The translations under genes were made by a program, and so were the position numbers. The notes beneath the pieces were generated by a model. The model ran no database searches, was not told the DNA's origin, and saw only the letters and a program-made list of their open reading frames with translations. A stretch of 64,000 nt of DNA from Chloroflexota bacterium (GTDB taxonomy: Bacteria > Chloroflexota > Dehalococcoidia > UBA2247 > RBG-13-53-26), in NCBI GenBank assembly GCA_003551705.1, contig PUNJ01000117.1, forward strand, positions 8,041-72,040. The letters run 5' to 3'. Positions 6,696 through 53,279 of the stretch are shown piece after piece (position 1 is the stretch's first letter; every line of letters begins with the position of its first letter).

Positions 6696-6737
6696 GGAAT
6701 AACACTCTCCAGGTCTCCAGTTTTGCAGAAGCGCCTG

Positions 6738-8753: not shown

Positions 8754-8792
8754 ACGTGTAAATATTATAGCGGAGGCTATAGCGATAGGGGG

Positions 8793-30297: not shown

Positions 30298-30346
30298 TTG
30301 ACTTGCACCCTGCGACATCTATATAATGTTGATAAAGTTAATCAAC
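30298..30346 (+). promoter_or_regulatory. sigma70-like promoter (TTGACT-N18-TATAAT) with overlapping inverted repeat GTTGAT-N7-ATCAAC: candidate autoregulatory Rrf2 operator
   Basis: -35 at 30298..30303, -10 at 30322..30327, inverted repeat at 30328..30346, ATG of the Rrf2 gene at 30352 with almost no leader. Confidence 0.5.
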
Positions 30347-30351
30347 AAACT

Positions 30352-30795
30352 ATGAAACTTTCTACTCGAAGTCGATACGGACTGACCGCTCTCTTGGACA
30401 TAGCCTCGCAGCCCTCAGACAAGCCGGTCCTGCTCAAGGACATAGCCAAGAGACAGCAGATTCCCGCCCAGTACCTGCATCAACTGGTTACGCCTTTAAT
30501 AAAGGCGGGAATCCTGTTCAGCGTGCGTGGGGCTCATGGGGGCGTCAGCCTGGCCAAACCTTCGAACGAGATAGTCCTCGAGACCGTCATCCGAATTCTC
30601 GAAGGATCAATTGCGCCCGTCAAGTGCGTTGACGACCCTAAATCGTGCACCCGTTCCGATTTCTGTGTGACTCGCGAGGTCTGGACCGAGGTGAATCAGG
30701 CGATGACGGGTGTGCTCGAGTCCATAACCTTGCAGGACCTTGTGATACGTCAACGAGAGAAGGAACAACTGAAGACCACCATGTACTACATCTAG
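30352..30795 (+). CDS. Rrf2-family transcriptional regulator (IscR/CymR-like, three-Cys Fe-S ligand set)
   Basis: Start MKLSTRSRYGLTALLDIA (ORF 30298 begins on the -35 hexamer). Winged-helix N-terminus, then C-x6-C-x5-C (CVDDPKSCTRSDFC). Confidence 0.8.
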   Translation: MKLSTRSRYGLTALLDIASQPSDKPVLLKDIAKRQQIPAQYLHQLVTPLIKAGILFSVRGAHGGVSLAKPSNEIVLETVIRILEGSIAPVKCVDDPKSCTRSDFCVTREVWTEVNQAMTGVLESITLQDLVIRQREKEQLKTTMYYI

Positions 30796-30823: not shown

Positions 30824-31759
30824 GTGGTGAAAGAAAGACCGCTCATTGCAGAGAATATAACCGACCTGATCGGTCACACCCCGATTGTACGATTGGCCCG
30901 TATCGGTGCGGGACTCGAAGCACAGATCTTGGCCAAGTTGGAATCATTCAATCCGCTGGCCAGTTTGAAGGACAGGATCGGCCTGGAAATGATCGAGGCT
31001 GCGGAGCAGGAAGGACGGATCACGCCTGCTACTGTGATTGTGGAAGCCACCAGCGGAAACACCGGCATCTCACTGGCGTTTGTCTGCGCCGTAAAGGGCT
31101 ACAAGCTGATCATAACCATGCCCGACTCCATGTCGGACGAGAGAAAGAGACTGCTGGCCGTCTTCGGAACGCAACTGGTAATGACGCCGGCCAAAGATGG
31201 TATGCTTGGGGCATTGAAGAAGGCATCGGAAATCGCAACGCAGAACTCCAACCACCTGCTGCTGAGCCAGTTCACGAACCCTGCCAACACGCAGGCGCAC
31301 CGCAATACCACCGCCGAGGAGATATGGCATGACACCGGCGGGCAGCTGGATGTCCTAGTTGCAGGCGTAGGTACTGGTGGCACCTTAACCGGAGTGGGAG
31401 AGGTAATCAAGCAACGAAAACCCTCAATACATTTAGTGGCTGTTGAACCGCAGGCGTCCCCCGTGCTGTCGGGAGGAAAGCCGGGTCCCCACGGCATCCA
31501 GGGACTGGGCGCCGGGTTTATACCTGATATTCTCAATCTGCGCGTGGTCGACGAGATTATGCCCGTAACCAAGGAAGAGGCTGTGGAGACATGCAGCAGA
31601 CTGGCCCGGGAAGAGGGCATCCTGGCCGGCATATCTTCCGGGGCTGCTACCTGGGCAGCCATGGAGATCGCGGCCAGACCAGAGATGCGTGGCAAGATAG
31701 TTCTGGTAATACTCCCCGACTCTGGGGAGCGATATTTGAGCAACGCCTTGCCAGCGTGA
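30824..31759 (+). CDS. cysK: cysteine synthase (O-acetylserine sulfhydrylase)
   Basis: 311 aa; PLP-lysine motif NPLASLKDRIG, GTGGT loop. Confidence 0.9.
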   Translation: MVKERPLIAENITDLIGHTPIVRLARIGAGLEAQILAKLESFNPLASLKDRIGLEMIEAAEQEGRITPATVIVEATSGNTGISLAFVCAVKGYKLIITMPDSMSDERKRLLAVFGTQLVMTPAKDGMLGALKKASEIATQNSNHLLLSQFTNPANTQAHRNTTAEEIWHDTGGQLDVLVAGVGTGGTLTGVGEVIKQRKPSIHLVAVEPQASPVLSGGKPGPHGIQGLGAGFIPDILNLRVVDEIMPVTKEEAVETCSRLAREEGILAGISSGAATWAAMEIAARPEMRGKIVLVILPDSGERYLSNALPA

Positions 31760-31778: not shown

Positions 31779-32567
31779 ATGGACGAGGTCACCATATCCA
31801 GAGCGATTATCGAGAGTTTCTCCAGGGAATTCCTGGATGCTATGGATGTGGATGTGGCCGTTGCCGGCGCCGGCCCATCGGGGATGATGGCCGCGTATGA
31901 TCTGGCCAGTGCCGGTTTCAAGACCGTTGTCTTTGAAAAGAACCTCCGCCTGGGTGGCGGCATGCCGGGAGGCGGCATGATGTTCAACCGCATCGTCCTG
32001 CAGGAAGAGGGCAAACAAATACTGGGCGATCTTAATGTGAGGATGCAGGAGTTCTCCGACGGCTATTACACGGCCGACGCGCTCGAAGCCATGTCAGTGA
32101 TAGCGGTCCGGGCCATCCAGGCAGGAACCAAGGTCTTCAATCTGATCAGCGTTGAGGATGTCATGATCAGAGAAGAGAACCGCATAACAGGACTTGTGCT
32201 TAACTGGACGGCTGTTTCCATGGCCGGACTTCACGTAGATCCCCTGGCGGCCAAGGCAAGGGTGGTCATCGACGCCACCGGGCATGAGTGTGAAGTTGCC
32301 CGGATCGTAGAGCGCAAGATAGGCGCCTATTTGCGGACGCCCACGGGCCGGATAATGGGAGAGAAGTCGATGTGGGCGGAACGGGGAGAAACAGAGATTA
32401 TCGAAAACACAAGGGAGGTCTACCCAGGGCTTGTGGTAGCCGGTATGGCCGCCAATGCCGTCTGCGGTTCACCGCGCATGGGGGCGATTTTCGGCGGCAT
32501 GCTGATATCGGGCAAGCGGGCAGCCCAGGTAGCGATCGAAATGTTGAAAGATGGAGAGCGTGTTTAG
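31779..32567 (+). CDS. thi4: thiazole synthase Thi4 (archaeal/eukaryotic type; no Cys at the suicide-donor position, i.e. sulfide-dependent type)
   Basis: 262 aa; [26 protein letters not shown] fold; [14 protein letters not shown] region lacks the yeast Cys205; good SD GAAGGAGG. Confidence 0.8.
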
Positions 32568-33210
32568 TACAGTCAAAGAGGATATAAGAACCGTTTTCGA
32601 GCGTGACCCTGCTGCTCGGACCCTGATGGAGGTGGTATTCTGCTACCCCGGGCTGCATGCCTTGCTGATGCATAGACAGGCCCATTACCTGTGGCGGCAC
32701 CGCCTTCGGTTCTTAGCTAGACTGCTCTCGCATTTAAACCGGTGCATAACCGGGATAGAGATACATCCGGGAGCCAGAATCGGCCGGAGGCTGTTCATAG
32801 ACCACGGTATGGGCGTGGTAATAGGCGAAACTACGGAGATAGGCGATGACGTACTCATGTATCAGGGAGTAGTCCTCGGCGGGACCAGCCTCGAGAAGAC
32901 AAAGCGTCATCCTACAATAGGCAACAGTGTGGTGATCGGCGCGGCGGCCATTCTGCTGGGCCCCATCGAAGTCGGAGAAGGTGCCAGAGTAGGAGCCAAT
33001 TCAGTCGTCATCAACTCCGTCCCTCCCGGTTCGACAGTGGTCGGCATTCCCGGCCGGGTAGTCGGAGATAAGAGGATATCAACCATAGACCTGGACCATG
33101 GCAAGCTGCCTGACCCGGTCGCTGAAGCCCTGGGGCTTGTTCTTGAGCAACAGCGAAAGCTCGAGGAACGAATAGGGCGTCTCGAAACGCAACTGCAGAA
33201 CAGGACATGA
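32551..33210 (+). CDS. cysE: serine O-acetyltransferase
   Basis: 219 aa; [10 protein letters not shown]-terminal motif, hexapeptide repeats ([28 protein letters not shown]). Confidence 0.85.
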
Positions 33211-33381: not shown

Positions 33382-34581
33382 ATGTTGAAATCAATTGACG
33401 AAATAAATGAGAAGATCAGCAAAGGCCAGGCCGTCGTTGTAACGGCTGAGGAAATCATAGACATCATCGACGAGAAAGGACTGCCCAGGGCGGCCCGTGA
33501 GGTGGACGTAGTAACCACTGGCACCTTCGGGCCCATGTGCTCGTCCGGCGCCTATCTCAACCTGGGACACCCGGTCCCCCGCATGAAGTTCAGTAGCAGT
33601 ACTTATGTCAACGAAGTCCCAGCCTACTCAGGATTTGCAGCCGTAGACATTTTCATAGGGGCTACAGCCCTTCCCGACAATGATCCCAGAAACAAGACAT
33701 ACCCCGGTGAATTCCCCTATGGGGGCGGTCACGTGATCGAGGAGCTTGTAGCCGGGAAGGACTTGAGGCTGGTGGCCAATACCTACGGGACCGATTGCTA
33801 TCCCAGAAGAAGAATCGACACCCTTATCAACATTGACAGCATCAACGAAGCGACGCTTTTCAACATGCGTAATGCCTACCAGAACTATAATATAGGCGTT
33901 AACCTGTCCGACCGGACCATACACACTTACATGGGTGTACTCAAACCCAGATTGGGAAACGCCACCTACAGCTCAGCAGGACAGTTATCACCCCTGCTGA
34001 ACGATCCTTATTATAAGTCCATAGGCGTAGGCACCAAGATCTTCCTTGGCGGCGGGACTGGATATGTAGCCTGGCATGGTACACAACACAGTCCGTGCGC
34101 TCTAAGAGGCGACAATGGAGTACCCAGGCGGGGATCAGGGACCCTGGCTGTGATTGGAGACCTCAAGCAAATGAGCCCGCACTGGCTCCGGGGTGTTAGC
34201 TTTCTCGGCTACGGGGTAAGTCTGATGGTGGGCATAGGGGTACCCATCCCGGTCACTTCGGAGAAAGTCCTGGCCTGTGCCGGTGTCAGAGATGAAAACA
34301 TATTCGCCCCGGTAGTAGACTATTCCAATGCCTATCCCTATGCCAAAACCGAAATCCTGGCGGAGGCAAGTTATGCCCAGCTCAAGACGGGCATCATTAC
34401 CGTCAACGGCAAGTCCGTTCCTACGGCTTCGCTCTCAAGCTATGCGAAGGCTACCGAGATAGCCGAGATACTCAAGAAATGGATAAAGGACGGGGACTTC
34501 TCTCTGACCAGTCCGGTAGCTCCGTTGCCCGGAGTAGAATCGGGTATTGTGATGAATTCGCTCAAAGAACGGGACCATTAA
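33382..34581 (+). CDS. COG1900/DUF39 sulfide-dependent homocysteine biosynthesis protein (MA1821-like L-aspartate-semialdehyde sulfurtransferase)
   Basis: ORF 33310..34581; start ATG 33382 with GGAGGA SD; about 400 aa with family-typical Cys residues. Confidence 0.75.
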   Translation: MLKSIDEINEKISKGQAVVVTAEEIIDIIDEKGLPRAAREVDVVTTGTFGPMCSSGAYLNLGHPVPRMKFSSSTYVNEVPAYSGFAAVDIFIGATALPDNDPRNKTYPGEFPYGGGHVIEELVAGKDLRLVANTYGTDCYPRRRIDTLINIDSINEATLFNMRNAYQNYNIGVNLSDRTIHTYMGVLKPRLGNATYSSAGQLSPLLNDPYYKSIGVGTKIFLGGGTGYVAWHGTQHSPCALRGDNGVPRRGSGTLAVIGDLKQMSPHWLRGVSFLGYGVSLMVGIGVPIPVTSEKVLACAGVRDENIFAPVVDYSNAYPYAKTEILAEASYAQLKTGIITVNGKSVPTASLSSYAKATEIAEILKKWIKDGDFSLTSPVAPLPGVESGIVMNSLKERDH

Positions 34582-34591
34582 AGGAGGGGAA

Positions 34592-35002
34592 ATGTCTGTA
34601 TCGAGAAGAATTGTCCTGCGTTTTCCCCGTCCTCTTGTCGACCAGCCCATAATTTACAAGCTGGTGAAGGACTACAACCTCATGTTCAATATCCTCAAGG
34701 CCTCAGTTACTCCCAAGGAGGAAGGCCTTCTGGCCTTGGAGCTAAGTGGTACCCAGGCGGACTACAACAGAGGAGTACAGTTTCTGACAGAGGCCGGGGT
34801 AGAAATACAACCTATTGGCAAGGACATATTCAGGGATGAGGACCTGTGCACGCATTGTGGGGCATGCGTTACCATGTGCCCCACTGATGCCTTTCACATC
34901 GAGGGCAGGGCAAGATGGATAAGGTTCGACGCAGAGAAATGCATTGCCTGCGGCATCTGTATCAAGGCATGCCCGGCGCGGGCCATGGAAATGACGATTT
35001 GA
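34592..35002 (+). CDS. NIL-domain / 4Fe-4S ferredoxin protein (MA1822-like partner of COG1900)
   Basis: 136 aa; N-terminal NIL domain then CTHCGACVTMCP and CIACGICIKACP. Confidence 0.7.
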   Translation: MSVSRRIVLRFPRPLVDQPIIYKLVKDYNLMFNILKASVTPKEEGLLALELSGTQADYNRGVQFLTEAGVEIQPIGKDIFRDEDLCTHCGACVTMCPTDAFHIEGRARWIRFDAEKCIACGICIKACPARAMEMTI

Positions 35003-35745
35003 ACAGTGCGATTTCGTACCAACCCCGGCTATACAGGGACTGGACCAGGGACAGGGACCTGGTTTCCTGCTCGGTGGTTGCCGGTCAGACAGACCTCTGC
35101 GTCAGGACCACACGTAACCTACGGTTCAGAGCAGTGAAGCTGCTGTCCAAATACCGGGGCCAGCTGGAGCGATACATCGAGAGGCATCCTGAGTTCGAAG
35201 GCGCCCTTGCCCCCATCTCTGTAGGCGGTGAAGCCCCGGAAATTGCCAAGGCTATGGCCCGAGCAGCAGAGATAGCCGGAGTCGGTCCGATGGCCGCCGT
35301 TGCGGGAGCCATAGCCGGTTTCGTGGGCAGGGGTTTGTCCAGGTACTCTGAGGAGACCATCATAGAGAACGGGGGAGACATCTTTTTGCAATCAAGCCGG
35401 AAGCGACTAGTGGGCGTGTTTGCCGGCGAATCGCCATTGTCGGGCAGCATTGCACTTGAGATACAACCGGAGGAGACTCCTTTGGGCATTTGCACCTCTT
35501 CAGGAACGGTAGGACATTCGTTGAGCTTTGGCAAAGCAGATGCATGCATAGTTTTGTCGCCCATTGTGGAGATCGCCGATGCGGCGGCCACGGCTCTGGG
35601 CAATCGCATCATGTCGGCGGCAGATATCCCGGCTGCAATAGAAGCAGCCAAGCTGATGAATGAAGTCGCCGGTGTGGTTATCATAAAAGGAGACCAGATG
35701 GGAGTTTGGGGCAAAGTTAAGCTTGTCCCTCAACGGGAGCAATGA
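34999..35745 (+). CDS. UPF0280 / COG2122 ApbE-like protein (MA1715-like, third component of the sulfide-dependent homocysteine system)
   Basis: ORF 34915..35745 overlaps the ferredoxin gene; likely TTG start at 34999 (LNSAISYQPRLYRDW...). Start uncertain. Confidence 0.55.
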   Translation: MNSAISYQPRLYRDWTRDRDLVSCSVVAGQTDLCVRTTRNLRFRAVKLLSKYRGQLERYIERHPEFEGALAPISVGGEAPEIAKAMARAAEIAGVGPMAAVAGAIAGFVGRGLSRYSEETIIENGGDIFLQSSRKRLVGVFAGESPLSGSIALEIQPEETPLGICTSSGTVGHSLSFGKADACIVLSPIVEIADAAATALGNRIMSAADIPAAIEAAKLMNEVAGVVIIKGDQMGVWGKVKLVPQREQ

Positions 35746-36920
35746 GAAGAATATACCTGGATCACGCAGCTACTACACCAGTTAGACCCGAGGTGCTGGA
35801 GGCCATGCTTCCGTACTTTGGTGATGAATTTGGCAATCCATCAAGCATACACTTTCTGGGCCAGGAAACGCGTGTCGCAGTTGAGGAAGCCCGGGAACAG
35901 GTGGCCCGCCTGATCGGGGCCGAAGCAAGCGAGATAGTCTTCACCAGCAGCGGCACCGAAGCCGATAACTTCGCACTGAAGGGAATCGCCTTTGCCAATC
36001 GGAATAGAGGAAAGCATATCATAACGTCGTCAATCGAGCATCATGCCGTCCTGAATCCATGCCATTTCCTCGAGGAGCAGGGTTTTGATGTCACCTACCT
36101 CGGCGTAGACCGTGACGGCCTGGTAGATCCTGAAGCCGTTGCGAAAGCTGTCAGGCCAGACACCATCCTGGTGTCGATTATGCATGCCAATAACGAGATC
36201 GGCACGCTGCAGCCCGTGGAGCAAATCAGCACCATAACCAGGGAGCACGGAATCTGCTTCCATACGGATGCCGTACAGACGGTTGGTCGTATACCGGTGG
36301 ATGTCGAGGCGATTGGGGCGGACTTGCTGTCCATGGCAGCACACAAGCTATACGGTCCAAAGGGGGTCGGTGCTCTCTTCATCAGAAGGGGCACTAAGAT
36401 TCACCCCTTCATGCATGGCGGCGGGCAGGAGAAAGGCCGGCGAGCCAGCACGGAGAATGTGCCCGGCATCGTCGGCTTCGGGAAAGCCGCCGCTATGGCC
36501 CGGTCCGAGATGGACACCGAAGTCCCTCGTTTGACTTCCATGCGTGATAGATTGATCAGCGGCCTGTTGGGCAAGATGGACCGCGTATATTTGAACGGGC
36601 ATCCGCAACTCCGGTTGCCCAACAATGTTAATCTGAGCATTGACTTCGTCGAAGGGGAGTCGTTAGCAGTCAGCCTTGATCTCGAGGGCATAGCGGCCTC
36701 GACCGGCTCTGCATGCACGTCGACCGACATGCATGCGTCACATGTCCTGACTGCCATCGGAGTTTCGGGAATCCTCGCCAGAGGATCGCTGCGGTTCTCC
36801 CTCGGGCACGCAAATGATGATGCCGATGTTGATTATGTGCTTGATGCCCTACCCGGAATCGTAAACAGGCTAAGAGCCATATCACCATTGGCCAGGTCCG
36901 ATCGTGCAAGAAATGAATAG
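35742..36920 (+). CDS. cysteine desulfurase (NifS/IscS class)
   Basis: 392 aa; PLP-Lys in SMAAHKLYGPKG, persulfide Cys in STGSACTS. Confidence 0.85.
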   Translation: MRRIYLDHAATTPVRPEVLEAMLPYFGDEFGNPSSIHFLGQETRVAVEEAREQVARLIGAEASEIVFTSSGTEADNFALKGIAFANRNRGKHIITSSIEHHAVLNPCHFLEEQGFDVTYLGVDRDGLVDPEAVAKAVRPDTILVSIMHANNEIGTLQPVEQISTITREHGICFHTDAVQTVGRIPVDVEAIGADLLSMAAHKLYGPKGVGALFIRRGTKIHPFMHGGGQEKGRRASTENVPGIVGFGKAAAMARSEMDTEVPRLTSMRDRLISGLLGKMDRVYLNGHPQLRLPNNVNLSIDFVEGESLAVSLDLEGIAASTGSACTSTDMHASHVLTAIGVSGILARGSLRFSLGHANDDADVDYVLDALPGIVNRLRAISPLARSDRARNE

Positions 36921-36969
36921 CCGAGGCGAAGAACATACGGAGATATGCGTGAAGGAGACTAATTAAGCC

Positions 36970-37410
36970 ATGCCAGAGATTGTGGCGGTCTGCATCAGCA
37001 ATGAAGTAGGCACGAAGAAGAAGCCGGTAGGCCATGCAAACCTTGTCGAGGATCTCGGCCTGGAGGGCGATGCCCATGCGGGCTATCTGCCTAATCGTCA
37101 TGTAAGCTTGCTTGCCTTGGAGAGTATCGAAAAGATGCGAGATCAGGGACTGGATGTAGGCCCTGGAGATTTCGCTGAAAACATCACCACACAAGGTATA
37201 GACCTGCCCTCCCTGCCTCTTGGTACCAGGCTCACGATAGGCCCACAAGCTGTGCTGCAGATCACGCAAATCGGCAAGGAATGCCACACGCGATGTGCCA
37301 TCTATTACCAGGCAGGAGACTGTATCATGCCAAAGGAGGGCGTATTCGCCCGTGTAGTGCGTGGAGGTCCGATCTGTGACGGCGATCCCATAGTGAGGGC
37401 CGAAAGCTAG
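36970..37410 (+). CDS. MOSC-domain protein (MoCo sulfurase C-terminal domain family)
   Basis: 146 aa beta-barrel MOSC pattern with conserved Cys (GKECHTRCAIY). Confidence 0.65.
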   Translation: MPEIVAVCISNEVGTKKKPVGHANLVEDLGLEGDAHAGYLPNRHVSLLALESIEKMRDQGLDVGPGDFAENITTQGIDLPSLPLGTRLTIGPQAVLQITQIGKECHTRCAIYYQAGDCIMPKEGVFARVVRGGPICDGDPIVRAES

Positions 37411-37418
37411 AGAAACCC

Positions 37419-38207
37419 ATGCAAGAGGAAGTCGAAAGAGTAACCGCATTGCGGTACACCGGTACGGATGTGCAGGAGATTGACGAATCGGTCGTGAAGG
37501 AATACCCCTTCACTATCTCGGTCAATAACCAGGAACTCGTGACGTTGCTCTGTTCGCCCACCTATCTCAAGTTTCTGGCTGTCGGGTTTCTGGTTTCGGA
37601 AGGTATCATCAAGAGCAAGGACGATATCAAGAAGGTGGTAGTGGACGAGAGACTGGGAATAGCCTGGGTGCAGACCACTGACCAGGAGGCTGTGCAGCCG
37701 CTGATGTTATCCAAGAGATTGATCACTTCCGGTTGCGGTCGTGGAGCATCCTTCTACAATCCGGATGATGCCCAAGCTTTCACCATTATTGAGTCAAAGC
37801 TGACGGTCAAGCCAGAAGATGTTTTCTCCCTTGTGCAGGAGTTTCAGCATTACTCCGAAATCTACAAGACCACTCACGGCGTTCACAGCGCGGCTTTGTG
37901 CGACAATAAGAAGATATTGCTTTTTCGGGATGACATTGGCAGGCATAACGCCATTGACAAAATAGTTGGAGAATGCCTTCTTAACGACCTGTCGACGCAA
38001 GACCGCATGATTGTTGTCAGCGGACGCATATCCTCTGAGATGGCTGTCAAAGTTGCAAAGAGAAATATACCAGTCCTGGTATCCATTTCGGCGCCGACAG
38101 ACCTCGGTATCCGCCTCGCCAATGAGTTTGGCCTTACCCTGATTGGTTTTGTCAGGCCCAAGAGGATGAACGTGTATGCAGGTAGGGAAAGAATAGCAGG
38201 ACTATGA
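37419..38207 (+). CDS. fdhD: FdhD-type sulfurtransferase (formate dehydrogenase accessory protein family)
   Basis: 262 aa; catalytic loop TSGCGRGAS; no formate dehydrogenase gene in this window. Confidence 0.8.
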   Translation: MQEEVERVTALRYTGTDVQEIDESVVKEYPFTISVNNQELVTLLCSPTYLKFLAVGFLVSEGIIKSKDDIKKVVVDERLGIAWVQTTDQEAVQPLMLSKRLITSGCGRGASFYNPDDAQAFTIIESKLTVKPEDVFSLVQEFQHYSEIYKTTHGVHSAALCDNKKILLFRDDIGRHNAIDKIVGECLLNDLSTQDRMIVVSGRISSEMAVKVAKRNIPVLVSISAPTDLGIRLANEFGLTLIGFVRPKRMNVYAGRERIAGL

Positions 38208-39124
38208 GTACAGAGAAGAACCGAATCTCCAGATTGAAAGACAGAATATCCGAACTTAAGAATAGAAGGGACGCCCTGATCCTGGCCCACAATTACCAGT
38301 TGGGCGAAGTCCAGGACATCGCTGATGTTGTGGGCGACTCATTGGAGTTGAGCCGCATCGCAGCTGCATCCGAGGCTAGCGTTGTCGTCTTTTGCGGCGT
38401 TCACTTCATGGCCGAAACCGCCTATATCCTCAGTCCGGACAAGACGGTGTTACTGCCCAACCTGGGAGCAGGGTGTCCCATGGCTGACATGATCACCGCT
38501 GCCGAAGTCAAGCGGATGAGGCAAGACCACCCCAATGCCATGGTGGTAGCTTATGTCAATACAAGCGCGGAGGTAAAAGCGCACTCCGATGTGTGCTGTA
38601 CATCGGCTAATGCGGCAAGGCTCGTCGCCAATCTTGATGCAGAGGAAATCATCTTTGTACCTGACCAGTATCTTGGAAGTTACGTCATGGCCCAAACCGG
38701 CAAGACGATGATCTTATCGTCCGGTTATTGCCCAACTCATGCCAGAATCTCCGGAGTCCATATTGCCAAGCTGCGCAAGGAGTACCCTGAAGCCGTGGTC
38801 ATCGCCCATCCGGAATGCCGTCCCGATGCAATAGAACTTGCCGACGAGGTGTTAAGCACGGGCGGCATGTGCCAATACGTCAAGACCGCCCCGGCAAGAC
38901 AGATCATCGTGGCTACTGAGATCGGTATCATACACAGGCTGCAGAAAGAGAACCCAAACAAGGTATACCTCCCCGTATCGGAGCAGGCTGTTTGCCCCAA
39001 CATGAAGATGATCACCCTCGACGACATAGTCAGGTCGCTGGAAGACATGGCGCCGGAGGTAACGGTGCCGGAAGACATTCGAGCCAGGGCCAAGCTTGCT
39101 GTTGACAGGATGCTGCTTGGTTGA
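38204..39124 (+). CDS. nadA: quinolinate synthase
   Basis: 306 aa; LAHNYQ, FCGVHFMAET, three conserved Cys for the 4Fe-4S cluster. Confidence 0.9.
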   Translation: MSTEKNRISRLKDRISELKNRRDALILAHNYQLGEVQDIADVVGDSLELSRIAAASEASVVVFCGVHFMAETAYILSPDKTVLLPNLGAGCPMADMITAAEVKRMRQDHPNAMVVAYVNTSAEVKAHSDVCCTSANAARLVANLDAEEIIFVPDQYLGSYVMAQTGKTMILSSGYCPTHARISGVHIAKLRKEYPEAVVIAHPECRPDAIELADEVLSTGGMCQYVKTAPARQIIVATEIGIIHRLQKENPNKVYLPVSEQAVCPNMKMITLDDIVRSLEDMAPEVTVPEDIRARAKLAVDRMLLG

Positions 39125-39187
39125 TTCGCGCCACCTCCGGAACAACCAGGCACACATTGGAGCGCCTCTACGGATCGTGTTATACTC

Positions 39188-46018: not shown

Positions 46019-46705
46019 CTATTGATGTACCGCTTCTATTTCGCCCTTCAGGTAAGCCTCGTTCACCTGCTTTGCCGGGTGTAACTGTACGCTATAGTCC
46101 TTCAGCGGGGCCAGTTCTTCCATCTTGTCCAAACGTCCCTGCTTGGACAACCGCTCGTATATCAGTGCCCACGCACAATCCCTCTCCGTGCTGGTCTCAC
46201 ACTTGCCCTCTTTCTGACCGCCGCACTGGCCGTTGACCAGACCCTTTGGACACCTGGCAATAGGACAGATGCCGCCATAATCGGCAAGCAGGCAATTACC
46301 GCAGGCACGGCACCGCTCCGACCAGACACCCTCCGCCTCCGCAACCCCTATGAAACGCGTATTCAGTCCGGGGACCACCGGCTGCGTCTCCAGCATATCA
46401 GCCACCAGTTGCACGCCCGCGCCACAGGCCAGAGAGAGGACCGCCTCGACACCCCTGGCCTTCTCCAGAATAGGCTCGATATACTCTCTGTCGCACTGCC
46501 GCTGTATGGTGGCTTCTTCAATCTTCACATTGCCATTCTTCAACTGCGCGGCCATCCTTAGCTGCGAGGCCAGCAGTTCCACTTCCTTCTCGCCGCCAGC
46601 CATGCATACGCTGACACACGTCCCGCATCCAAGGACCAGCAGACTCTTGTAGTCCTTGACCCGCTCCTGGATTTCTTCGAAAGGTTTTCTCTCACCAACA
46701 ATCAT
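46019..46705 (-). CDS. MetV-like Cys-rich protein (MTHFR C-terminal zinc-ribbon domain family) with extra N-terminal CGTC module
   Basis: 228 aa; CRACGNCLLADYGGICPIARCPKGLVNGQCGG...GKCE matches the MetV / PF12225 pattern; 4-nt overlap with the mvhD stop. Confidence 0.55.
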   Translation of the reverse strand: MIVGERKPFEEIQERVKDYKSLLVLGCGTCVSVCMAGGEKEVELLASQLRMAAQLKNGNVKIEEATIQRQCDREYIEPILEKARGVEAVLSLACGAGVQLVADMLETQPVVPGLNTRFIGVAEAEGVWSERCRACGNCLLADYGGICPIARCPKGLVNGQCGGQKEGKCETSTERDCAWALIYERLSKQGRLDKMEELAPLKDYSVQLHPAKQVNEAYLKGEIEAVHQ

Positions 46706-47127
46706 CCTGCTTTTTCCTTTCTCAAGGGATTAGGCCCCAGATCGCGGGCCCTCTGGGTCATCTCGTTGCAGGCGGACGCAAACATCGGCGCATCAGACGC
46801 CCCCAGGTTATACATCTCTACTCTGTCAGGTTCCAGGCCGATCTCCTCGAGGAGTTTCTTGGCTTGCTTGACTCTTTTCTTGGCTCTCAAATTTCCTTCC
46901 AGGAAATGACAATCACCTTCCTCTCAGCCGGCGACGAAGGCGGCATCCGCCCCTTCGGCCAGAGCCTGAAGGAGGTGTATGGTATCAACTTTGCCCGTAC
47001 ACTCGAGCTTCACAATCCGCACATTCGGCGAATACTCCATGCGCATGGAGCCTGCCAGGTCGGCTGCCGAATAGGCACAATAGTGACAGCAGAAAGCCAC
47101 CACCTTTGGTTCGAAAGGCTCACCCAC
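46702..47127 (-). CDS. mvhD: MvhD (methyl-viologen-reducing hydrogenase delta subunit family) with in-frame TGA at 46924..46926: predicted selenoprotein
   Basis: ORFs 46924..47127 (MGEPFEPKVVAFCCHYCAYSAADLAG...EGADAAFVAG) and 46702..46890 are contiguous in one frame through a single TGA. Read-through gives ...AAFVAG-U-EEGDCHFLEGNLRAKKRVKQAKKLLEEIGLEPDRVEMYNLGASDAPMF..., i.e. the MvhD VAGC-x-GDCHY motif with Sec at the first Cys. Confidence 0.75.
46891..46907 (-). promoter_or_regulatory. candidate bacterial SECIS hairpin 16 nt downstream of the mvhD UGA
   Basis: RNA: AUUUCC-UGGAA-GGAAAU, a perfect 6-bp stem with 5-nt loop carrying GG; position fits bacterial SECIS spacing. Confidence 0.4.
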
Positions 47128-47147
47128 GGTACTCTCCTTTCTCTTCG

Positions 47148-50100
47148 CTAGACATACAAAACACAGGTCTTGGCCAGTATCTGTTCATCGTCGTAGTGCT
47201 GCAGGCGTATAGCCTTGCGCGGGCAGGCGCTGGTACAGATGCCACACCCACGACATGCCGCCTGTTCGATATCCGCAAACCCGTCAGCGTTAATGGTCGG
47301 GACATTGAAGGGGCAGGAGCGAACACAGGTCAGACAGGCTACGCATCTATCCTGGTCCACCACCGAGACAATCCCCCCTACCATCAGATACGGTTGCGCC
47401 AGTATCGTCGCCGCCCTGGATACCGCACCCTTGGCCTGTGCAATGGACTCAGCTATGGTCTTCGGAGCGTGTGCCATGCCGCATAGATACATGCCTTCAT
47501 TAATGAAGTCCAGGGGCCTGAGTTTCATATGTGCTTCCATGTAGAAGCCGTCCTGCGTCAAGGGCAGTTTCAATTTGCTGGCAAAGACGTGAGCATCCGG
47601 TTGAGGCCGGACCGCCGCACTCAGGACCACCAGGTCCGAAGGCAAAGAGATGCTCCTGCCCAGGACCGAATCATAAACACTTACCATCACCCGGTCACCC
47701 GATGCATCCACCTCCGGCTTCATGTCGTCTTCGAAGCGTATGAAAGTAACACCCTTATCCCTGGCCTCACGATACTTCAGTTCTTTCATACCATACGTGC
47801 GAATGTCACGGTACAGGATGTACACTTCGGCCTTCGCGTTGTCTTCTTTTATCTTGAGTGCATTGCCGATCGCCTGGCCGCAACAAACGCGGCTGCAATA
47901 CATGTTGTCCTTTTCACGTGAGCCTACACACTGGATCATCACCACCGAATTGAGGTCCTTCAGGTCGATGGCCTTCCTTACCAGCTTGTCTTCCAGGTCC
48001 AGTTGGGTTATGACCTTGTCCGATCGGTCAGCCGAATACTCGGACGGTCTGAATTCCACGCCGCCCGTAGCCAGTATCACAACACCGTGTTCAATATCGT
48101 GCAGTTCGCCTCCGGCAGTGGCGATGCGGGACACGTAGTTGCCCACATACCCGGAGAAGTCCTGTACTGTCGATTCCTTATACACCTGTATGCGGGGTTC
48201 CCGCTCTACCTCTGCAACCAGCGATTTGAGCAACTCATGCGGATCAGAACCATCAAGCGTGTAATGCAGGTTCTTCAAATTGCCGCCCAGCTCTTTCTCC
48301 CTTTCCACCAGAACGGCATCGAAACCCTGCGCCGCCAGCCCGAGGGCAGCCGTCATCCCAGCCGCCCCGCCACCTATCACCAGACCAGAGCGATGAATGC
48401 TTGCCCGAGACTGGTGCAGAGGTTTTAACGTAGCCGCACGCGCCACCGCCATTCGCACCAGGTCCTTTGATTTCTCCGTAGCCCGGTCAGGGAAGTGCGA
48501 ATGGACCCAGGAACACTGGTCCCTGATGTTTGCCATCTCAAAGAGGAACTTGTTGAGACCCGCCTCCTGTATCGTGTCCTGGAAAAGAGGTTCATGGGTA
48601 CGGGGACTGCAAGAAGCCACCACCACCCGGTTAAGGTTCTTCTCCTTGATTGCCTCAACGATCTTGATCTGGGTATCCGTCGAACATGTATAGAGATTCT
48701 CGTCTGCATGTACTACGTAGGGGAGGGTTTTCGCATACTCAGCCACGCCCGGTACATCCACAACCCTGGCGATATTAGAGCCGCAACGACAAACAAAAAC
48801 GCCTATTCGCGGTTCCTGCCCGTCGATACTGAGCTCCGGCGGGTACGCCTTCTCTGTAACCATGCTACCCCGGACCTGGGCAATGCCCTGAGATGCCAGG
48901 TGCGCAGCACCGCTGGCATTCATAACCGATTCCGGAATGTCCATTGGAGCATTGAAGGCGCCGGCCACGTACACTCCGGGGCGTGAAGTCACGTTGGGTT
49001 CAAACTCCTCAGTCCTGCAGAACCCGAACTGGTCCACATCCACAGCCAGCCGCTCCGCCAGTTTCTTGGTGCTGGCTGAAGGGACCAGCCCGATGGAAAG
49101 GACCACCATGTCGAATTCTTCAGAGCGGCGCCCTTCGTCAGTATCATATTCCATAACCAGATTATGGCTCTGCTGCAACTCCTTGACTCCGGAAACCAGG
49201 CCCCTCACATAGCGTATGCCGAACTTGTCCTTGGCCGACTCGAAGTATCGCTCGAAGCCCTTACCATAGGCCCGCATGTCGTTATAGAAGATGGTGGGCT
49301 CTATATCGGCGGCATGTTCCCTGGCGATGATGGCTTCTTTCGTGGCGTACATGCAGCAGACCGAGGAGCAATAGTCGCGGTCGCAGGTCTCATCCCTGGA
49401 ACCGACGCACTGTATCCAGGCTATCTTCACGGCATGCTTTCCGTCCGACGGCCTCAGTACCTGGCCCTGGTAGGGGCCTGAAGCGGACAGAATTCGCTCG
49501 AACTGCATACTGTTAATGACATTGGGCATGCGTCCGTAGCCGTATTCGTCCTTCAAAGCAGCATCGAATTCTTCAAAGCCGGGGGCCAGAATAACCGAGC
49601 CGACGTTCAGGTCGACCGTCTGTTCCAGCATGGTATGGTCTATGGCGTTGGCCTGGCAGGCTGCCACGCACTGGTAGCATTCGCTGCAGAGTCCACAGGC
49701 CAGACAACGTTCCGCCTCAGCCTTGGCCGCCTCATGGCTTAGCTCAAGCTCTACCTCCCGGAAGTCCCGCCTCCTTTCGGCAACCGGCAGGTGAGGAGCA
49801 TTGTGACGAGGCATCTTTTTCACGCCTTCCAGCGGCACCTCGACCGGCGTGAAGGTGCGCTCTCTGTCCAAAGCGATGTCCTCGCCCTTGAGATATCTGT
49901 CTATCGAAATGGCCGCCTCTTTGCCGGCCGCTATTGCCTGGATAACTGACGCCGGGCCGGATACACAGTCACCTCCAGCGAATATACCAGGCTTGTTTGT
50001 GGCCACGGTGACTGGATCGACGTTTACCGTCCCTTGCGGAGTGGTGGTAATACCCGCCTCTCTCCAGGGTGTCAGATCGCTCTGCTGTCCTATGGCAATA

Positions 50101-51581
50101 ATGACCACATCCGCATCCAGCGAACTCGTTATATCCGATGCAAACTCGGGATTGAAACGCCCATCAGCGTCAAACACACGTGTACAGGCTACGCACTCCA
50201 GGCCCGTAACGTTTCCCTTGCCACCCAGAACGCGCTTGGGCCCCAGAGAGCAATGCAGCTCGACGCCTTCCTCAATAGCAGCCTCTATCTCCCACTCGTG
50301 AGAAGGCATCTCCTGCCTCGACTCCAGACATACCACGTGTACTTCTGAGGCACCCAATCTGAGAGATGATCTGGCAACGTCTATGGCGACGTTTCCGCCA
50401 CCAACCACAACCACCTTCTTCCGGCTGAATGAATCGGCCGCCATCTTACCGGAGGCCGCGTCCCTCAAGAAGTCCACTCCAAACAGGACTCCGTCCAGGT
50501 CGATCCCCTCCAGTCCTAGTCGTCGGGACTGGGGAGCTCCAACACCAACAAAGACTGCTTCGTATTGTTCAGACAACTGGTCGACGGTCACATCGGAACC
50601 AACGCGTGTATTGAGTTTTACCTCAACACCCATCTGCAGGATACGGTCAATCTCGTATTTCACAACATCCCGGGGCAGGCGGTACTCAGGAATGCCTACG
50701 GACATCATACCGCCAAGCACTGGATTTGCCTCAAAAATGGTGGGTTCATAGCCGGACAGTGCCAGGAAGTAAGCTGCGCTGAGACCGGCAGGGCCGGACC
50801 CGACGATGGCGACCTTCCTTCCGTTCTTGGGCAATCCGGCTGGCAGGGTATCCTCGCCTCCTGCCTTGACCTCGTCCGCAACGTATCTCTTCAACTGGCA
50901 TATGGAGACCGCCTCGTCCACCTTGGTCCTTGAGCAGTCCGTCTCACAGGGATGCACGCATACCCTGCCGCATATGCCCGGCAGCGGGTTCTGCTCTCTA
51001 ATGAGGTCCAATGCTTCCTTGAACTTGCCTTGATATATCAGCGCCACATATCCCTGCACGCTTATGTGGGCCGGACAGGCTATCTTACAGGGAGATGTCC
51101 CCCGCTTGTCGATGGACATGGCGCTGGGTATGGCCTGCGGATAACGTTTAAAGATGGCCTTCCGAGTGGCCAACTCTTCCTCGAACTCGCTTGAAATGAT
51201 GACCGGACACACCTCAACGCAGTCACCACACGAACTGCACTTGGTCAGGTCAATGAAACGCGGCCTCTTACGGACCTGCGCCATGAAATTGCCTTCCTCA
51301 CCATCGAGCGACAGCACCTCGGCATTAGTGACTATCTCGATATTGGGATGCCTGCCAACCTCGATCAGTTTCGGAGAGATCATGCACATGGAGCAGTCGT
51401 TGGTGGGGAAGGTCTTGTCTAGCTGTGCCATCCTGCCGCCGATGGAGGTTGTCTCCTCGACAAGGTAGACCTTGAAACCGGAGCTGGCCAGGTCCAGGGC
51501 GGACTGCATGCCGCATATTCCGCCGCCCACAACCATGACAGCGCCCACTTTGTTGGAGTTCGGACTCTTTTCTATCTTCAT
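47148..51581 (-). CDS. HdrL-type giant heterodisulfide reductase A-like flavoprotein: HdrA module interrupted by a GltD/NfnB-like NAD(P)H:FAD oxidoreductase module, followed by a second HdrA module and ferredoxin domains (1477 aa)
   Basis: N-terminus VMVVGGGICGMQSALDLASSGFKVYLVEE (HdrA FAD fold). Residues ~170-560: CKIACPAHISVQGY...GICGRVCVHPCETDC then KVAIVGSGPAGLSAAYFLALSGYEPTIFE...VVVVGGGNVAIDVARS (GltD/NfnB-like). Thioredoxin-like CRCGSNIARVVD. Second FAD fold LVIGGGAAGMTAALGLAAQGFDAVLVERE. Terminal CVACLTCVRSCP / CRGCGICTSACP. No in-frame stop. Confidence 0.8.
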   Translation of the reverse strand: MKIEKSPNSNKVGAVMVVGGGICGMQSALDLASSGFKVYLVEETTSIGGRMAQLDKTFPTNDCSMCMISPKLIEVGRHPNIEIVTNAEVLSLDGEEGNFMAQVRKRPRFIDLTKCSSCGDCVEVCPVIISSEFEEELATRKAIFKRYPQAIPSAMSIDKRGTSPCKIACPAHISVQGYVALIYQGKFKEALDLIREQNPLPGICGRVCVHPCETDCSRTKVDEAVSICQLKRYVADEVKAGGEDTLPAGLPKNGRKVAIVGSGPAGLSAAYFLALSGYEPTIFEANPVLGGMMSVGIPEYRLPRDVVKYEIDRILQMGVEVKLNTRVGSDVTVDQLSEQYEAVFVGVGAPQSRRLGLEGIDLDGVLFGVDFLRDAASGKMAADSFSRKKVVVVGGGNVAIDVARSSLRLGASEVHVVCLESRQEMPSHEWEIEAAIEEGVELHCSLGPKRVLGGKGNVTGLECVACTRVFDADGRFNPEFASDITSSLDADVVIIAIGQQSDLTPWREAGITTTPQGTVNVDPVTVATNKPGIFAGGDCVSGPASVIQAIAAGKEAAISIDRYLKGEDIALDRERTFTPVEVPLEGVKKMPRHNAPHLPVAERRRDFREVELELSHEAAKAEAERCLACGLCSECYQCVAACQANAIDHTMLEQTVDLNVGSVILAPGFEEFDAALKDEYGYGRMPNVINSMQFERILSASGPYQGQVLRPSDGKHAVKIAWIQCVGSRDETCDRDYCSSVCCMYATKEAIIAREHAADIEPTIFYNDMRAYGKGFERYFESAKDKFGIRYVRGLVSGVKELQQSHNLVMEYDTDEGRRSEEFDMVVLSIGLVPSASTKKLAERLAVDVDQFGFCRTEEFEPNVTSRPGVYVAGAFNAPMDIPESVMNASGAAHLASQGIAQVRGSMVTEKAYPPELSIDGQEPRIGVFVCRCGSNIARVVDVPGVAEYAKTLPYVVHADENLYTCSTDTQIKIVEAIKEKNLNRVVVASCSPRTHEPLFQDTIQEAGLNKFLFEMANIRDQCSWVHSHFPDRATEKSKDLVRMAVARAATLKPLHQSRASIHRSGLVIGGGAAGMTAALGLAAQGFDAVLVEREKELGGNLKNLHYTLDGSDPHELLKSLVAEVEREPRIQVYKESTVQDFSGYVGNYVSRIATAGGELHDIEHGVVILATGGVEFRPSEYSADRSDKVITQLDLEDKLVRKAIDLKDLNSVVMIQCVGSREKDNMYCSRVCCGQAIGNALKIKEDNAKAEVYILYRDIRTYGMKELKYREARDKGVTFIRFEDDMKPEVDASGDRVMVSVYDSVLGRSISLPSDLVVLSAAVRPQPDAHVFASKLKLPLTQDGFYMEAHMKLRPLDFINEGMYLCGMAHAPKTIAESIAQAKGAVSRAATILAQPYLMVGGIVSVVDQDRCVACLTCVRSCPFNVPTINADGFADIEQAACRGCGICTSACPRKAIRLQHYDDEQILAKTCVLYV

Positions 51582-51596
51582 CGTCTCTACCCTGCC

Positions 51597-52448
51597 TTAA
51601 ATCAGTCCTTTTTGGCTCAACAGCGGCCTCGGGTCCACAATATGGCGGCGAAGCCATTTCTTGGCGGACGGGTGCTTGTAGGCTATTCCCATCAATTCGG
51701 TGAAGTAGAAGATCGGTATCCGGTATTCTTTTCCTGTCGCCTTTGAGATCTCTCCCTGCCTGCCATCCAGATTGGAAAGACACATGGGGCAGCCGGCAAC
51801 GATGCATTCCGCGCCTGCTTCCACAGCCGCATCCAGCAGCTTCACCATCAAGTCCCTGGCTATGTCGGGACGAGTCAATATCAGGCTGCCACCGCAACAA
51901 TCAGCCTTGTAAGACCATGGTCGTACATCGACTCCGAGGCAGGTCAGAAGGCTGTCCATGGACATGGGGTTCTCCGCGCTGGCGGCATCTGTGACCTTGG
52001 GCGGACGGGTAGTCAAACAGCCGTAATAGCATACCGCCTGCAGGTTTTCGAGAGGGACCTTGACCTTCGCCGATAACCGGTCCTCACCCAGGTCTTCCCA
52101 GAAGAAGTTGGCGACATGCTTGACCTTGAACTTTCCACCATAGCCATTGACACCATCAATCTTCTCCCCGGCAACCAGCTTCTTTTCGGCGACCTTAAGC
52201 CTCTGGAAGCACGCCGCACAGGGCACCACCAGGTCCAAGCCGGACTTGTCGGCAACAGCCAGGTTCCTGGCAGCAAGTGACAAGGCCAGTCTGTGATTCA
52301 ATGCATGTGCAGAAGACGCCCCGCAGCAATTCCAGTCCTTGAGCTCGCGCAGGTTGATATCCATAAGATGAGCAACACCTTCCAAGGACTCACTGTACTC
52401 CTTGGCCGTCCCTTCCAGTGAACATCCAGGATAATACGAAACTTCCAT
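51597..52448 (-). CDS. hdrB: heterodisulfide reductase subunit B (two CCG domains)
   Basis: 283 aa; MEVSYYPGCSLEG, NCCGASS and DCCGGSL. Confidence 0.85.
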   Translation of the reverse strand: MEVSYYPGCSLEGTAKEYSESLEGVAHLMDINLRELKDWNCCGASSAHALNHRLALSLAARNLAVADKSGLDLVVPCAACFQRLKVAEKKLVAGEKIDGVNGYGGKFKVKHVANFFWEDLGEDRLSAKVKVPLENLQAVCYYGCLTTRPPKVTDAASAENPMSMDSLLTCLGVDVRPWSYKADCCGGSLILTRPDIARDLMVKLLDAAVEAGAECIVAGCPMCLSNLDGRQGEISKATGKEYRIPIFYFTELMGIAYKHPSAKKWLRRHIVDPRPLLSQKGLI

Positions 52449-52450
52449 GA

Positions 52451-53023
52451 CTATCCTTTCAACTCGCTTGCTTTATAGAGTTGTTTGATATCGCTCTTAG
52501 CTTTCACACCGCTCGGTATGATCTTCACCTTCCCCTTTTTAAACATCGTAAGGCCAAAGTTGACCAGCTTGAACAAGCCGGCCCAGGACTCATTCTTGAA
52601 AGTGTAGGCCAAGATCATTTCACCCTCGTATACCCTGCCACGTTTCTTGATGGAGCCCAGAAAGGCTTTATGAAGGAGGGGGACACTCCGCTGGGCAGCC
52701 TCAATGTTCTCCTCGTACCCGATCTGCCTCAGGGTATCCATGACATGGGCGATCTGAATACCGTTGGGACATCTGGTACTGCAGGTCTCACAGGATGCAC
52801 ATATCCATATCGTACGACTCTTGAGCACTTCATCCTTAAGGCCGAACTGGATTTCGCGCATTAGCTTGTGAGGCGTGATATCCATGTAGGAAGCCAGCGG
52901 GCAACCGTTGGTGCATTTCATGCATTGGAAACACGCAGAGATGCTTTCACCGCTGAGGCTTTCCACTTTCTGGCGAAATGAGGATTGAGGCTCGAGGTTT
53001 GGCAATACTTCAACAGCAGTCAT
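52451..53023 (-). CDS. hdrC: heterodisulfide reductase subunit C (4Fe-4S dicluster)
   Basis: ORF 52451..53068; preferred start ATG 53021..53023 (MTAVEVL) with GAAGGTGGGAG SD; CFQCMKCTNGCP and CASCETCSTRCP. Confidence 0.8.
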   Translation of the reverse strand: MTAVEVLPNLEPQSSFRQKVESLSGESISACFQCMKCTNGCPLASYMDITPHKLMREIQFGLKDEVLKSRTIWICASCETCSTRCPNGIQIAHVMDTLRQIGYEENIEAAQRSVPLLHKAFLGSIKKRGRVYEGEMILAYTFKNESWAGLFKLVNFGLTMFKKGKVKIIPSGVKAKSDIKQLYKASELKG

Positions 53024-53279
53024 ACTCCCACCTTCGCAGATTATTGGGATGAAAAAGTAAAAAAGCAACGCCTTCGATTACATGATTACGAAATGCGATT
53101 GCTTTGGTATGAACGTTCTATCCATTCTGGCCAATCTGACGATTCTTCGTATTACCCCCGATTACCAGCTTGTAAACACAATGCAACTTGGGAAATTTTA
53201 CCATGTTGGCCCTCTGTTTGTCCAAGCAGCGCCTTGTATACCAATATCGGGTATGTTATGATTTTGCCGAGGTTGAACA

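Follow-up and report, generated by a model that had tools for sequence, protein, structure and literature searches.

What does an FdhD protein do when its gene lies between those of a cysteine desulfurase and a quinolinate synthase, with no formate dehydrogenase (FDH) encoded nearby? The question is raised by a 64,000-nucleotide (nt) stretch of a Chloroflexota bacterium of the class Dehalococcoidia (assembly GCA_003551705.1, contig PUNJ01000117.1), hereafter called the window. Four consecutive genes are concerned:

35742..36920, + strand: nifS, NifS/IscS class I cysteine desulfurase (TIGR03402, score 567.2 against a cut-off of 530.75)
36970..37410, + strand: small MOSC protein of 146 amino acids (aa) (PF03473, 37.5 against 22.7; AAGGAG ribosome-binding site upstream)
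37419..38207, + strand: fdhD, FdhD-family chaperone/sulfurtransferase for the bis-pyranopterin guanine dinucleotide (bis-PGD) cofactor (PF02634, 281.1 against 27.2; TIGR00129, 222.8 against 140.9)
38204..39124, + strand: nadA, NadA quinolinate synthase (PF02445, 407 bits; its start overlaps the fdhD stop in ATGA)

The original prediction described these genes as an orphan sulfur relay wedged between homocysteine genes and nadA, and proposed either a persulfide branch feeding the COG1900 homocysteine system or NadA, or a displaced FDH maturation module. The answer that we favour, with about even confidence, is a desulfurase hub operon: FdhD and MOSC would sulfurate a molybdenum or tungsten bis-PGD (Mo/W-bisPGD) cofactor for enzymes encoded elsewhere, and NadA would obtain its cluster from NifS.

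The four genes are the tail of a run of eleven genes on the + strand, Rrf2-cysK-thi4-cysE-COG1900-NIL/Fd-COG2122-nifS-MOSC-fdhD-nadA. Upstream of nifS, this run comprises:

30298..30346, + strand: promoter-like site TTGACT-18-TATAAT (30298-30327), then a perfect palindrome, GTTGATaaagttaATCAAC, directly before the Rrf2 start
30352..30795, + strand: Rrf2-family regulator, 147 aa (PF02082, E 1e-38; Cys92, Cys99 and Cys105)
30824..31759, + strand: CysK, cysteine synthase A (TIGR01139, 438 bits against a cut-off of 351)
31779..32567, + strand: Thi4-type ADP-thiazole synthase (TIGR00292, 325 bits against 148; sulfide-dependent according to the NCBIfam name)
32551..33210, + strand: CysE, serine O-acetyltransferase (TIGR01172, 246 bits against 211)
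33382..34581, + strand: COG1900/HcyBio homocysteine-biosynthesis enzyme (PF01837, E 6e-147)
34592..35002, + strand: NIL-domain 2x[4Fe-4S] ferredoxin (NIL and Fer4 families match)
34999..35745, + strand: COG2122 (ApbE-like) protein, 248 aa (NF003323, 298 bits against 271; PF27030)

Intergenic gaps across the eleven genes range from -17 to +99 nt. The COG2122 start overlaps the ferredoxin stop by 4 nt, the COG2122 stop and the nifS start share an ATGA at 35742-35745, and the spacings of nifS/MOSC, MOSC/fdhD and fdhD/nadA are 49, 8 and -4 nt. The last three values and the overlap of COG2122 with the desulfurase gene had been given in the original prediction and were recovered from the coordinates of the open reading frames (ORFs); its gene identities were likewise confirmed by profile scores and motifs. 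Between nifS and nadA, on the same strand, there are only two short genes and no terminator, and no convincing + strand terminator was found upstream of 39124, the end of nadA. The promoter-like site matches the consensus at 11 of 12 positions. The palindrome GTTGATaaagttaATCAAC occurs as one exact copy, and two or more matches at no more than one mismatch were found in 0 of 100 shuffles; it is not conserved in relatives (88 loci searched) and is therefore a single-genome observation. Together, the promoter-like site and the palindrome are probably the operon start and a candidate operator. Every gene of the run makes cysteine, mobilises cysteine sulfur, or requires sulfur or an iron-sulfur (Fe-S) cluster, and the eleven genes appear to be co-transcribed as one operon.

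The three cysteines of the Rrf2 regulator are spaced as in the Fe-S-binding regulator IscR, and the protein scores under the cut-off of both the IscR and the CymR equivalog models. Its ATG at 30352 gives the canonical N-terminus MKLSTRSRYG; a longer, TTG-started ORF from 30298 is probably an over-call. The start of the COG1900 gene can be read in two ways, as a long ORF from 33310 or, as called on the corresponding Logan contig, from 33382. Thi4 contains the local sequence DATGHECEV. Scans of the window with Rfam (gathering thresholds) and for tRNAs returned nothing, so the operon has no riboswitch leader by these scans. Downstream, the nadA-pcrA spacer (39125-39187) holds TTGGAG...TATACT, which may be a promoter of pcrA; this gene is then not necessarily part of the sulfur operon.

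In the hub operon as we envisage it, an IscR-like Rrf2 protein would control genes whose task is the synthesis of cysteine and the distribution of its sulfur. CysE and CysK would make cysteine, NifS/IscS would convert it into an enzyme-bound persulfide, and the genes around the desulfurase would be its clients. FdhD and the small MOSC protein, with its Cys3His motif, would form a two-part unit that holds the Mo/W-bisPGD cofactor and receives the sulfido ligand from the desulfurase, on behalf of one or more FDHs, or of related enzymes, whose genes lie in other parts of the genome. The [4Fe-4S] cluster of NadA would be built with sulfur from the same desulfurase, as in the NifS-NadA pair of Bacillus subtilis, and Thi4 and the COG1900 system would be further sulfur users. 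We infer all of these sulfur-transfer steps as well as the existence of a Mo/W-bisPGD target enzyme. We prefer this reading because MOSC occurs in molybdenum cofactor (Moco) contexts, because the FdhD pocket is invariant without class-specific changes, and because many NadA-IscS clusters have no FdhD.

The proteins themselves carry the features expected of their families. In NifS, residues 201-202 are the HK of the pyridoxal phosphate motif, and residues 323-327 form the catalytic SACTS loop (Cys325). FdhD matches solved FdhD structures over its full length (2pw9, E 1.5e-36; E. coli 4pde, E 6.8e-23, residues 18-261), and its SGCGRG loop (residues 104-109) contains a single cysteine, Cys106. 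All the family-invariant pocket residues are present, namely H156, DIGRHNA at 172-178, D180, R203, K211, T227, R246 and Y253, and these positions are 100% conserved in the FdhDs linked to IscS/NadA. When IscS/NadA-linked and FDH-adjacent FdhDs were compared by alignment, 24 of the 30 positions conserved at 90% or more in the latter were equally conserved in the former, and no residue was conserved specifically in the IscS/NadA-linked proteins. There is thus no sign of a changed function.

The window MOSC protein matches the MOSC (C-terminal) half of the MoaC/MOSC model PRK14499 with E 6.6e-56, and its orthologues in Bacillota are 65-70% identical to it, as against about 45% for FdhD across phyla. 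Orthologues are found within moeA-moaA-moaC-MOSC-mog operons of Carboxydocella and Sporomusa, MogA-MOSC and MoaC-MOSC fusions occur, and NCBIfam has a MoaC-MOSC model; given the operon context, a role in the molybdenum cofactor stays likely. Throughout the subfamily (30 and 17 aligned orthologues), Cys105-His106-x2-Cys109-x8-Cys118 is invariant, along with D34, H36 and R43, and this Cys3His motif has the look of a site for a metal or a cluster. Searched by sequence, the PDB gave no match to MOSC, and a fold search was needed: the AlphaFold2 model (mean pLDDT 85.8, the Cys-rich loop being its least confident part) matched YiiM (5yhh, E 3.7e-8), YuaD (1oru, TMq 0.81) and mARC1 in Foldseek.

We compared 85 FdhD loci, 80 of them from a scan of species-representative genomes of many phyla, and counted neighbours within 6 kb; related loci are non-independent samples in these counts, and the trees are simple neighbour-joining trees. 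The closest homologues of the window FdhD belong to Chloroflexota/Dehalococcoidia, at about 60% identity. Within 6 kb of fdhD were genes for IscS (23 loci), MnmA (21), NadA (20), FdhA (17), MOSC (16), CysK (14), Rrf2 (12), NuoF (11), MoeA (11) and NifU (8). The FdhA context and the NadA/IscS context were mutually exclusive, with 0 of the 85 loci having both. The order FdhD-NadA was seen in Dehalococcoidia, Syntrophomonadaceae and an actinomycete, NadA-FdhD-MOSC in Syntrophales and FdhD-IscS-NadA in Pelotomaculum propionicicum; the genes intervening at IscS/NadA-linked loci were those of MnmA, NifU and ThiF. Such fdhD neighbourhoods are the classic Rrf2-IscS-IscU-MnmA cluster with extra clients.

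On long contigs of close relatives, the order Rrf2-CysK-IscS-(AIRS-CoA_binding-MnmA)-MOSC-FdhD-NadA recurs, the nearest 10 kb encoding no FDH, and another order found in Dehalococcoidia is ThiF-MOSC-FdhD-NadA-CutA-Thi4-HcyBio-NIL/Fd-COG2122. One locus (L088, 1-11200) is a dense sulfur island encoding HcyBio, NIL-Fd, a CysE-like protein, a PP-loop protein, IscS, NifU, ThiF, a second IscS, Thi4, DUF6775, MnmA, MOSC, FdhD and ThiS; the opposite strand, 6 kb off, additionally encodes an IscS-NifU-DsrE-TusA set. A Dehalococcoidia metagenome-assembled genome (L081) shows the full gene order of the window without MOSC, at 54-72% identity. In this genome the loop Cys of FdhD is replaced by Ser, and the 410-nt gap between nifS and fdhD yielded only short, non-collinear matches when searched for a MOSC remnant. 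An apparent FdhA match 9 kb downstream in L081 proved to be a 260-aa NuoG-like Fe-S protein, which is no molybdopterin subunit. In three Dehalococcoidia relatives (L002, L018 and L086), a CutA1 gene follows nadA; it does not do so in the window. A deltaproteobacterial locus (L040, 10001-20316) has two FdhDs, a single-Cys copy by a class-V aminotransferase gene and a CXXC copy by FdhA genes.

The arrangement of nifS, MOSC, fdhD and nadA is conserved across phyla and is neither orphaned nor displaced. A local rearrangement of an fdhD-MOSC pair that otherwise always lies by an FDH is contradicted by the closest relatives (Dehalococcoidia and Syntrophales), in which the pair lies by IscS, MnmA and NadA; Dehalogenimonas does keep the FDH context. 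The words "orphan" and "wedged" in the original prediction were misleading, the arrangement being old, present in several phyla and sometimes condensed into one fused gene. As for the displaced maturation module, the maturation part remains supported, in view of MOSC in Moco operons and the invariant FdhD residues, and the displacement does not, the context being conserved.

Viewed from NadA, the tie to the desulfurase is the wider pattern, which FdhD and MOSC join in a subset. Metagenome loci sampled around NadA often had nadA directly behind IscS-NifU(-MnmA) or Rrf2-CysK-CysE without FdhD; among the 25 loci with at least 3 kb on both sides, IscS was present in 12, NifU in 10 and FdhD in 3.

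Employing the concatenated window MOSC, FdhD and NadA sequences as a query against a protein collection, we found that several of these proteins occur fused to one another. The list obtained held long proteins only, so that fusion frequencies are not derivable from it, and the fusions are known from that collection and two contigs. About 47 clusters (within P0249-P0298) are MOSC-FdhD fusions. All 120 close standalone FdhDs and all 17 FDH-adjacent ones have the FdhD loop Cys, as against only 12 of the 47 MOSC-FdhD fusion clusters; the other 35 carry Gly, Phe, Tyr, Arg or Trp at this position. None of 48 fusion proteins has lost the MOSC Cys motif. This pattern of residues suggests that FdhD can dispense with its loop Cys when MOSC is covalently attached to it, which in turn would place MOSC and FdhD in the same sulfur hand-off. 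A supposed association of an adjacent MOSC with retention of the FdhD loop Cys was dropped, since the fusions reverse it.

The original prediction had stated that no FDH or other molybdoenzyme is encoded in the window, and this was borne out. Pfam scans over the 64 kb, taking in every ORF of 150 aa or more, found neither PF00384 nor PF01568, and tblastn of the window with five FdhA queries, one NuoF query and one MoeA query gave ferredoxin-level matches only. A Logan contig extends about 5 kb past the window end and there encodes LeuRS and an enoyl-CoA hydratase, no FDH; the coverage of the genome is thus 69 kb. The window also carries, at 46019-53068 and 55454-56320, a MetV-like (DUF5981) gene, a gene for a 1477-aa HdrA/NAD(P)-binding/ferredoxin fusion, HdrB- and HdrC-like genes and MetF. 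This set looks like a Wood-Ljungdahl-type methylene-tetrahydrofolate reductase complex, which suggests that the organism needs an FDH. At the other end of the window (1175-10934) lies a GlgE-pathway alpha-glucan cluster (MalQ, a 1121-aa TreS-maltokinase fusion, GlgE and a DUF3417 glucan phosphorylase).

Several results weigh against the hub reading. Its target enzyme has to be assumed, there being no FDH, other Mo-bisPGD enzyme or Moco-biosynthesis gene in the 64 kb plus 5 kb; the operon is without IscU/NifU and MnmA, as homologues of NifU, MnmA and ThiF were not found in the window (tblastn, E <=1e-3); and the syntenic L081 has lost the FdhD loop Cys, as have further loci, of which none is adjacent to an FDH. 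It also leaves unexplained why FdhD/MOSC and NadA stay close through rearrangements, up to fusion. NadA is the immediate neighbour of fdhD (gap <=136 nt) in 17 of the 20 NadA-linked loci, in both orders, which a plain hub does not predict, and in the FdhD tree the NadA-linked proteins are spread over five or more separate branches. In nine clusters of the fusion list, FdhD and NadA form a single protein of 547-586 aa, in which FdhD comes first and a linker of 10-40 aa follows; these proteins have a mutual identity of 49-73%, some of them occurring in two independent sources (e.g. GenBank MEW6621003.1); one protein (P0299, MBW1996989.1), encoded behind HcyBio-NIL/Fd-Rrf2, is a MOSC-NadA fusion, and the same list has no MnmA-NadA or NifU-NadA fusion. 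Among the genome and metagenome loci fetched, there was no in-frame FdhD-NadA fusion, all being separate ORFs. The main rival, less probable than the hub, is that FdhD and/or the Cys3His MOSC dock on the desulfurase and pass persulfide sulfur to NadA, whose [4Fe-4S] cluster would be built or repaired in place, much as with plant SufE3; a Moco role may coexist. The adjacency, the scattered branches, the mutual exclusion of FDH and NadA/IscS contexts and the fusions all favour such a service to NadA, as do the TSGCG loop Cys, kept in 9 of 9 FdhD-NadA fusions, and the lack of nadB or nadC beside the NadA-linked fdhD loci. There are precedents in the SufE domain of SufE3 (PMC5890173), in B. subtilis NifS acting on NadA (PMC13066941) and in the stimulation of IscS by Cys121 of FdhD (PMC6239281). 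However, FDH maturation is the only experimentally known function of FdhD, the nucleotide-pocket residues are invariant although a pure persulfide shuttle would not need them, MOSC orthologues are embedded in Moco operons, and many NadA genes follow IscS-NifU without FdhD or MOSC. In L093, an FdhD-NadA fusion even lies 2-3 kb from a partial Mo-bisPGD enzyme. Nor are NadA fusions proof of a shared function, because NadA is also fused to the complete domain of the apparently unrelated HPPK in about 55 clusters (within P0300-P0362), and the long-protein list gives no frequencies by which to weigh them; HPPK (folate pathway), FdhD and MOSC all bind pterin compounds. The sulfur-relay idea of the original prediction therefore fares unevenly: its NadA branch gains from the adjacency, the fusions and the SufE3 and NifS-NadA precedents, whereas for its COG1900 branch there is only a loosely ordered co-location, fdhD/MOSC lying with HcyBio at varying order and distance in L081, L086, L088, L092, L099, L104 and L110 and without it in L002, L003 and L007. 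The hub and a direct service of FdhD/MOSC to NadA can both be true.

Two further explanations seem improbable to us, to a similar degree. FdhD and MOSC might mature a Mo/W-pyranopterin enzyme other than FDH, such as an FDH-like subunit of the respiratory complexes of Dehalococcoidia or a tungsten aldehyde oxidoreductase, and scattered targets would then explain the placement by the desulfurase. E. coli FdhD serves all three FDHs, and FdhD/FdsC can hand bis-MGD (bis-molybdopterin guanine dinucleotide) to TorA in vitro (PMC6239281); L002 has an AFOR-family gene and a ThiS-like gene 8 kb from the cluster, and in L093 the fusion has a Fer4_11 + Molydop_binding pair nearby. But no such enzyme is encoded in the window, FdhD serving non-FDH enzymes in vivo is without direct evidence, and the tie to NadA would be left unexplained. 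The linkage could also reflect no functional coupling at all, merely inherited synteny and operon compaction in small anaerobe genomes, with the fusions as by-products of overlapping stop and start codons. One indel can fuse fdhD and nadA where they overlap by 4-11 nt, within one 90%-identity cluster MOSC and FdhD occur both fused (415 aa) and apart (261 and 147 aa), and the HPPK-NadA proteins show that NadA tolerates unrelated partners. Yet the linkage survives three gene orders and is found in Chloroflexota, Syntrophales, Bacillota, Actinomycetota and others, with different FdhD clades by NadA; the divergence and linkers of the FdhD-NadA family indicate that it is old and maintained; and by our rough estimate chance would put NadA within 6 kb in about 0.3 of 85 loci.

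Several known systems resemble the hub operon in part. E. coli IscS-FdhD likewise joins a class I desulfurase and FdhD, and the window FdhD keeps the loop Cys and the GRHNA motif; E. coli FdhD, however, has a CXXC and its gene lies by fdoGHI, whereas the window protein has a single loop Cys and is encoded in a desulfurase operon with MOSC and nadA, with no FDH in sight. IscS interacts with FdhD, FdhD-like proteins bind sulfurated bis-MGD, the FdhD cysteines are neither universally conserved nor essential, and fdhD is said to be found alongside FDH or Moco genes (PMC6239281). B. subtilis employs dedicated donor-acceptor pairs, YrvO-MnmA and NifS-NadA, the cluster being assembled directly on NadA (PMC13066941). 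There nifS lies by nadBCA, so that a NifS-type desulfurase is likewise genomically tied to nadA; the window nadA is apart from nadB and nadC, MOSC and fdhD stand between nifS and nadA, and the desulfurase appears to be a general hub rather than NAD-dedicated. In plant SufE3, SufE is fused to NadA, which depends on the SufE domain for its activity (PMC5890173); a desulfurase-activating sulfur acceptor is thus joined to NadA, in parallel with the FdhD-NadA and MOSC-NadA fusions; the acceptors are unrelated (SufE versus FdhD/MOSC), the window genes are separate, and the bacterial case is known from sequence alone.

With the Rrf2 (IscR/CymR)-IscS-IscU-MnmA clusters of Bacillota and other anaerobes (including YrvO-MnmA), the window shares the three-Cys Rrf2 protein, cysK and the desulfurase, and its relatives add NifU and MnmA; in place of these two, the window has Thi4, CysE, the COG1900 system, MOSC, FdhD and NadA. 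The eukaryotic Moco sulfurase MOCOS/ABA3 combines the same NifS-like desulfurase and MOSC domain families and gives sulfur to the molybdenum cofactor, but the window has them in separate genes, its 146-aa MOSC is of the Cys3His subfamily, and sulfur would presumably go through FdhD to bis-PGD rather than to the xanthine-oxidase-type cofactor. Dehalogenimonas, of the same class, encodes MOSC and fdhD together in one cluster with Moco genes and fdnGHI (PMC13390414), that is, by FDH structural genes, whereas in the window and most close relatives the pair lies by nifS and nadA. COG1900/DUF39 is needed for homocysteine synthesis in Desulfovibrio alaskensis (PMC4045070). The same gene cast appears in a survey of Thi4 neighbourhoods, whose recurrent members are NifS, YiiM/MOSC, FdhD, HcyBio, CysK/E and MnmA; that survey is centred on Thi4 and mentions neither NadA nor the fusions (bioRxiv 10.1101/2025.09.23.678117).

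The components of the operon are known families, and their arrangement, especially the FdhD/MOSC-NadA linkage and fusions, is undescribed in the literature searched: no paper in it names FdhD together with "quinolinate synthase", and there was no genuine co-mention of quinolinate synthase and MOSC. The literature treats FdhD as a chaperone specific to FDH. To our knowledge, small bacterial MOSC proteins have no assigned function, and only for B. subtilis and plants is it known how NadA is supplied with its labile cluster. In Dehalococcoidia, Syntrophales, syntrophic Bacillota and others, fdhD and MOSC are tied to a housekeeping desulfurase and to nadA, up to fusion. The invariant MOSC Cys3His, together with the contrast between fused and standalone FdhDs at the loop Cys, points to a possible hand-off between MOSC and FdhD when the cofactor is sulfurated. 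Should the hub reading alone be true, the value lies in annotation, in that an fdhD without a neighbouring FDH would be normal in these phyla, not orphan or displaced. If FdhD/MOSC do serve NadA in many anaerobes, as a module dedicated to it or shared with it, this would be a third independent solution beside B. subtilis NifS-NadA and plant SufE3, a function of FdhD outside FDH maturation and the first defined role for bacterial small MOSC proteins.

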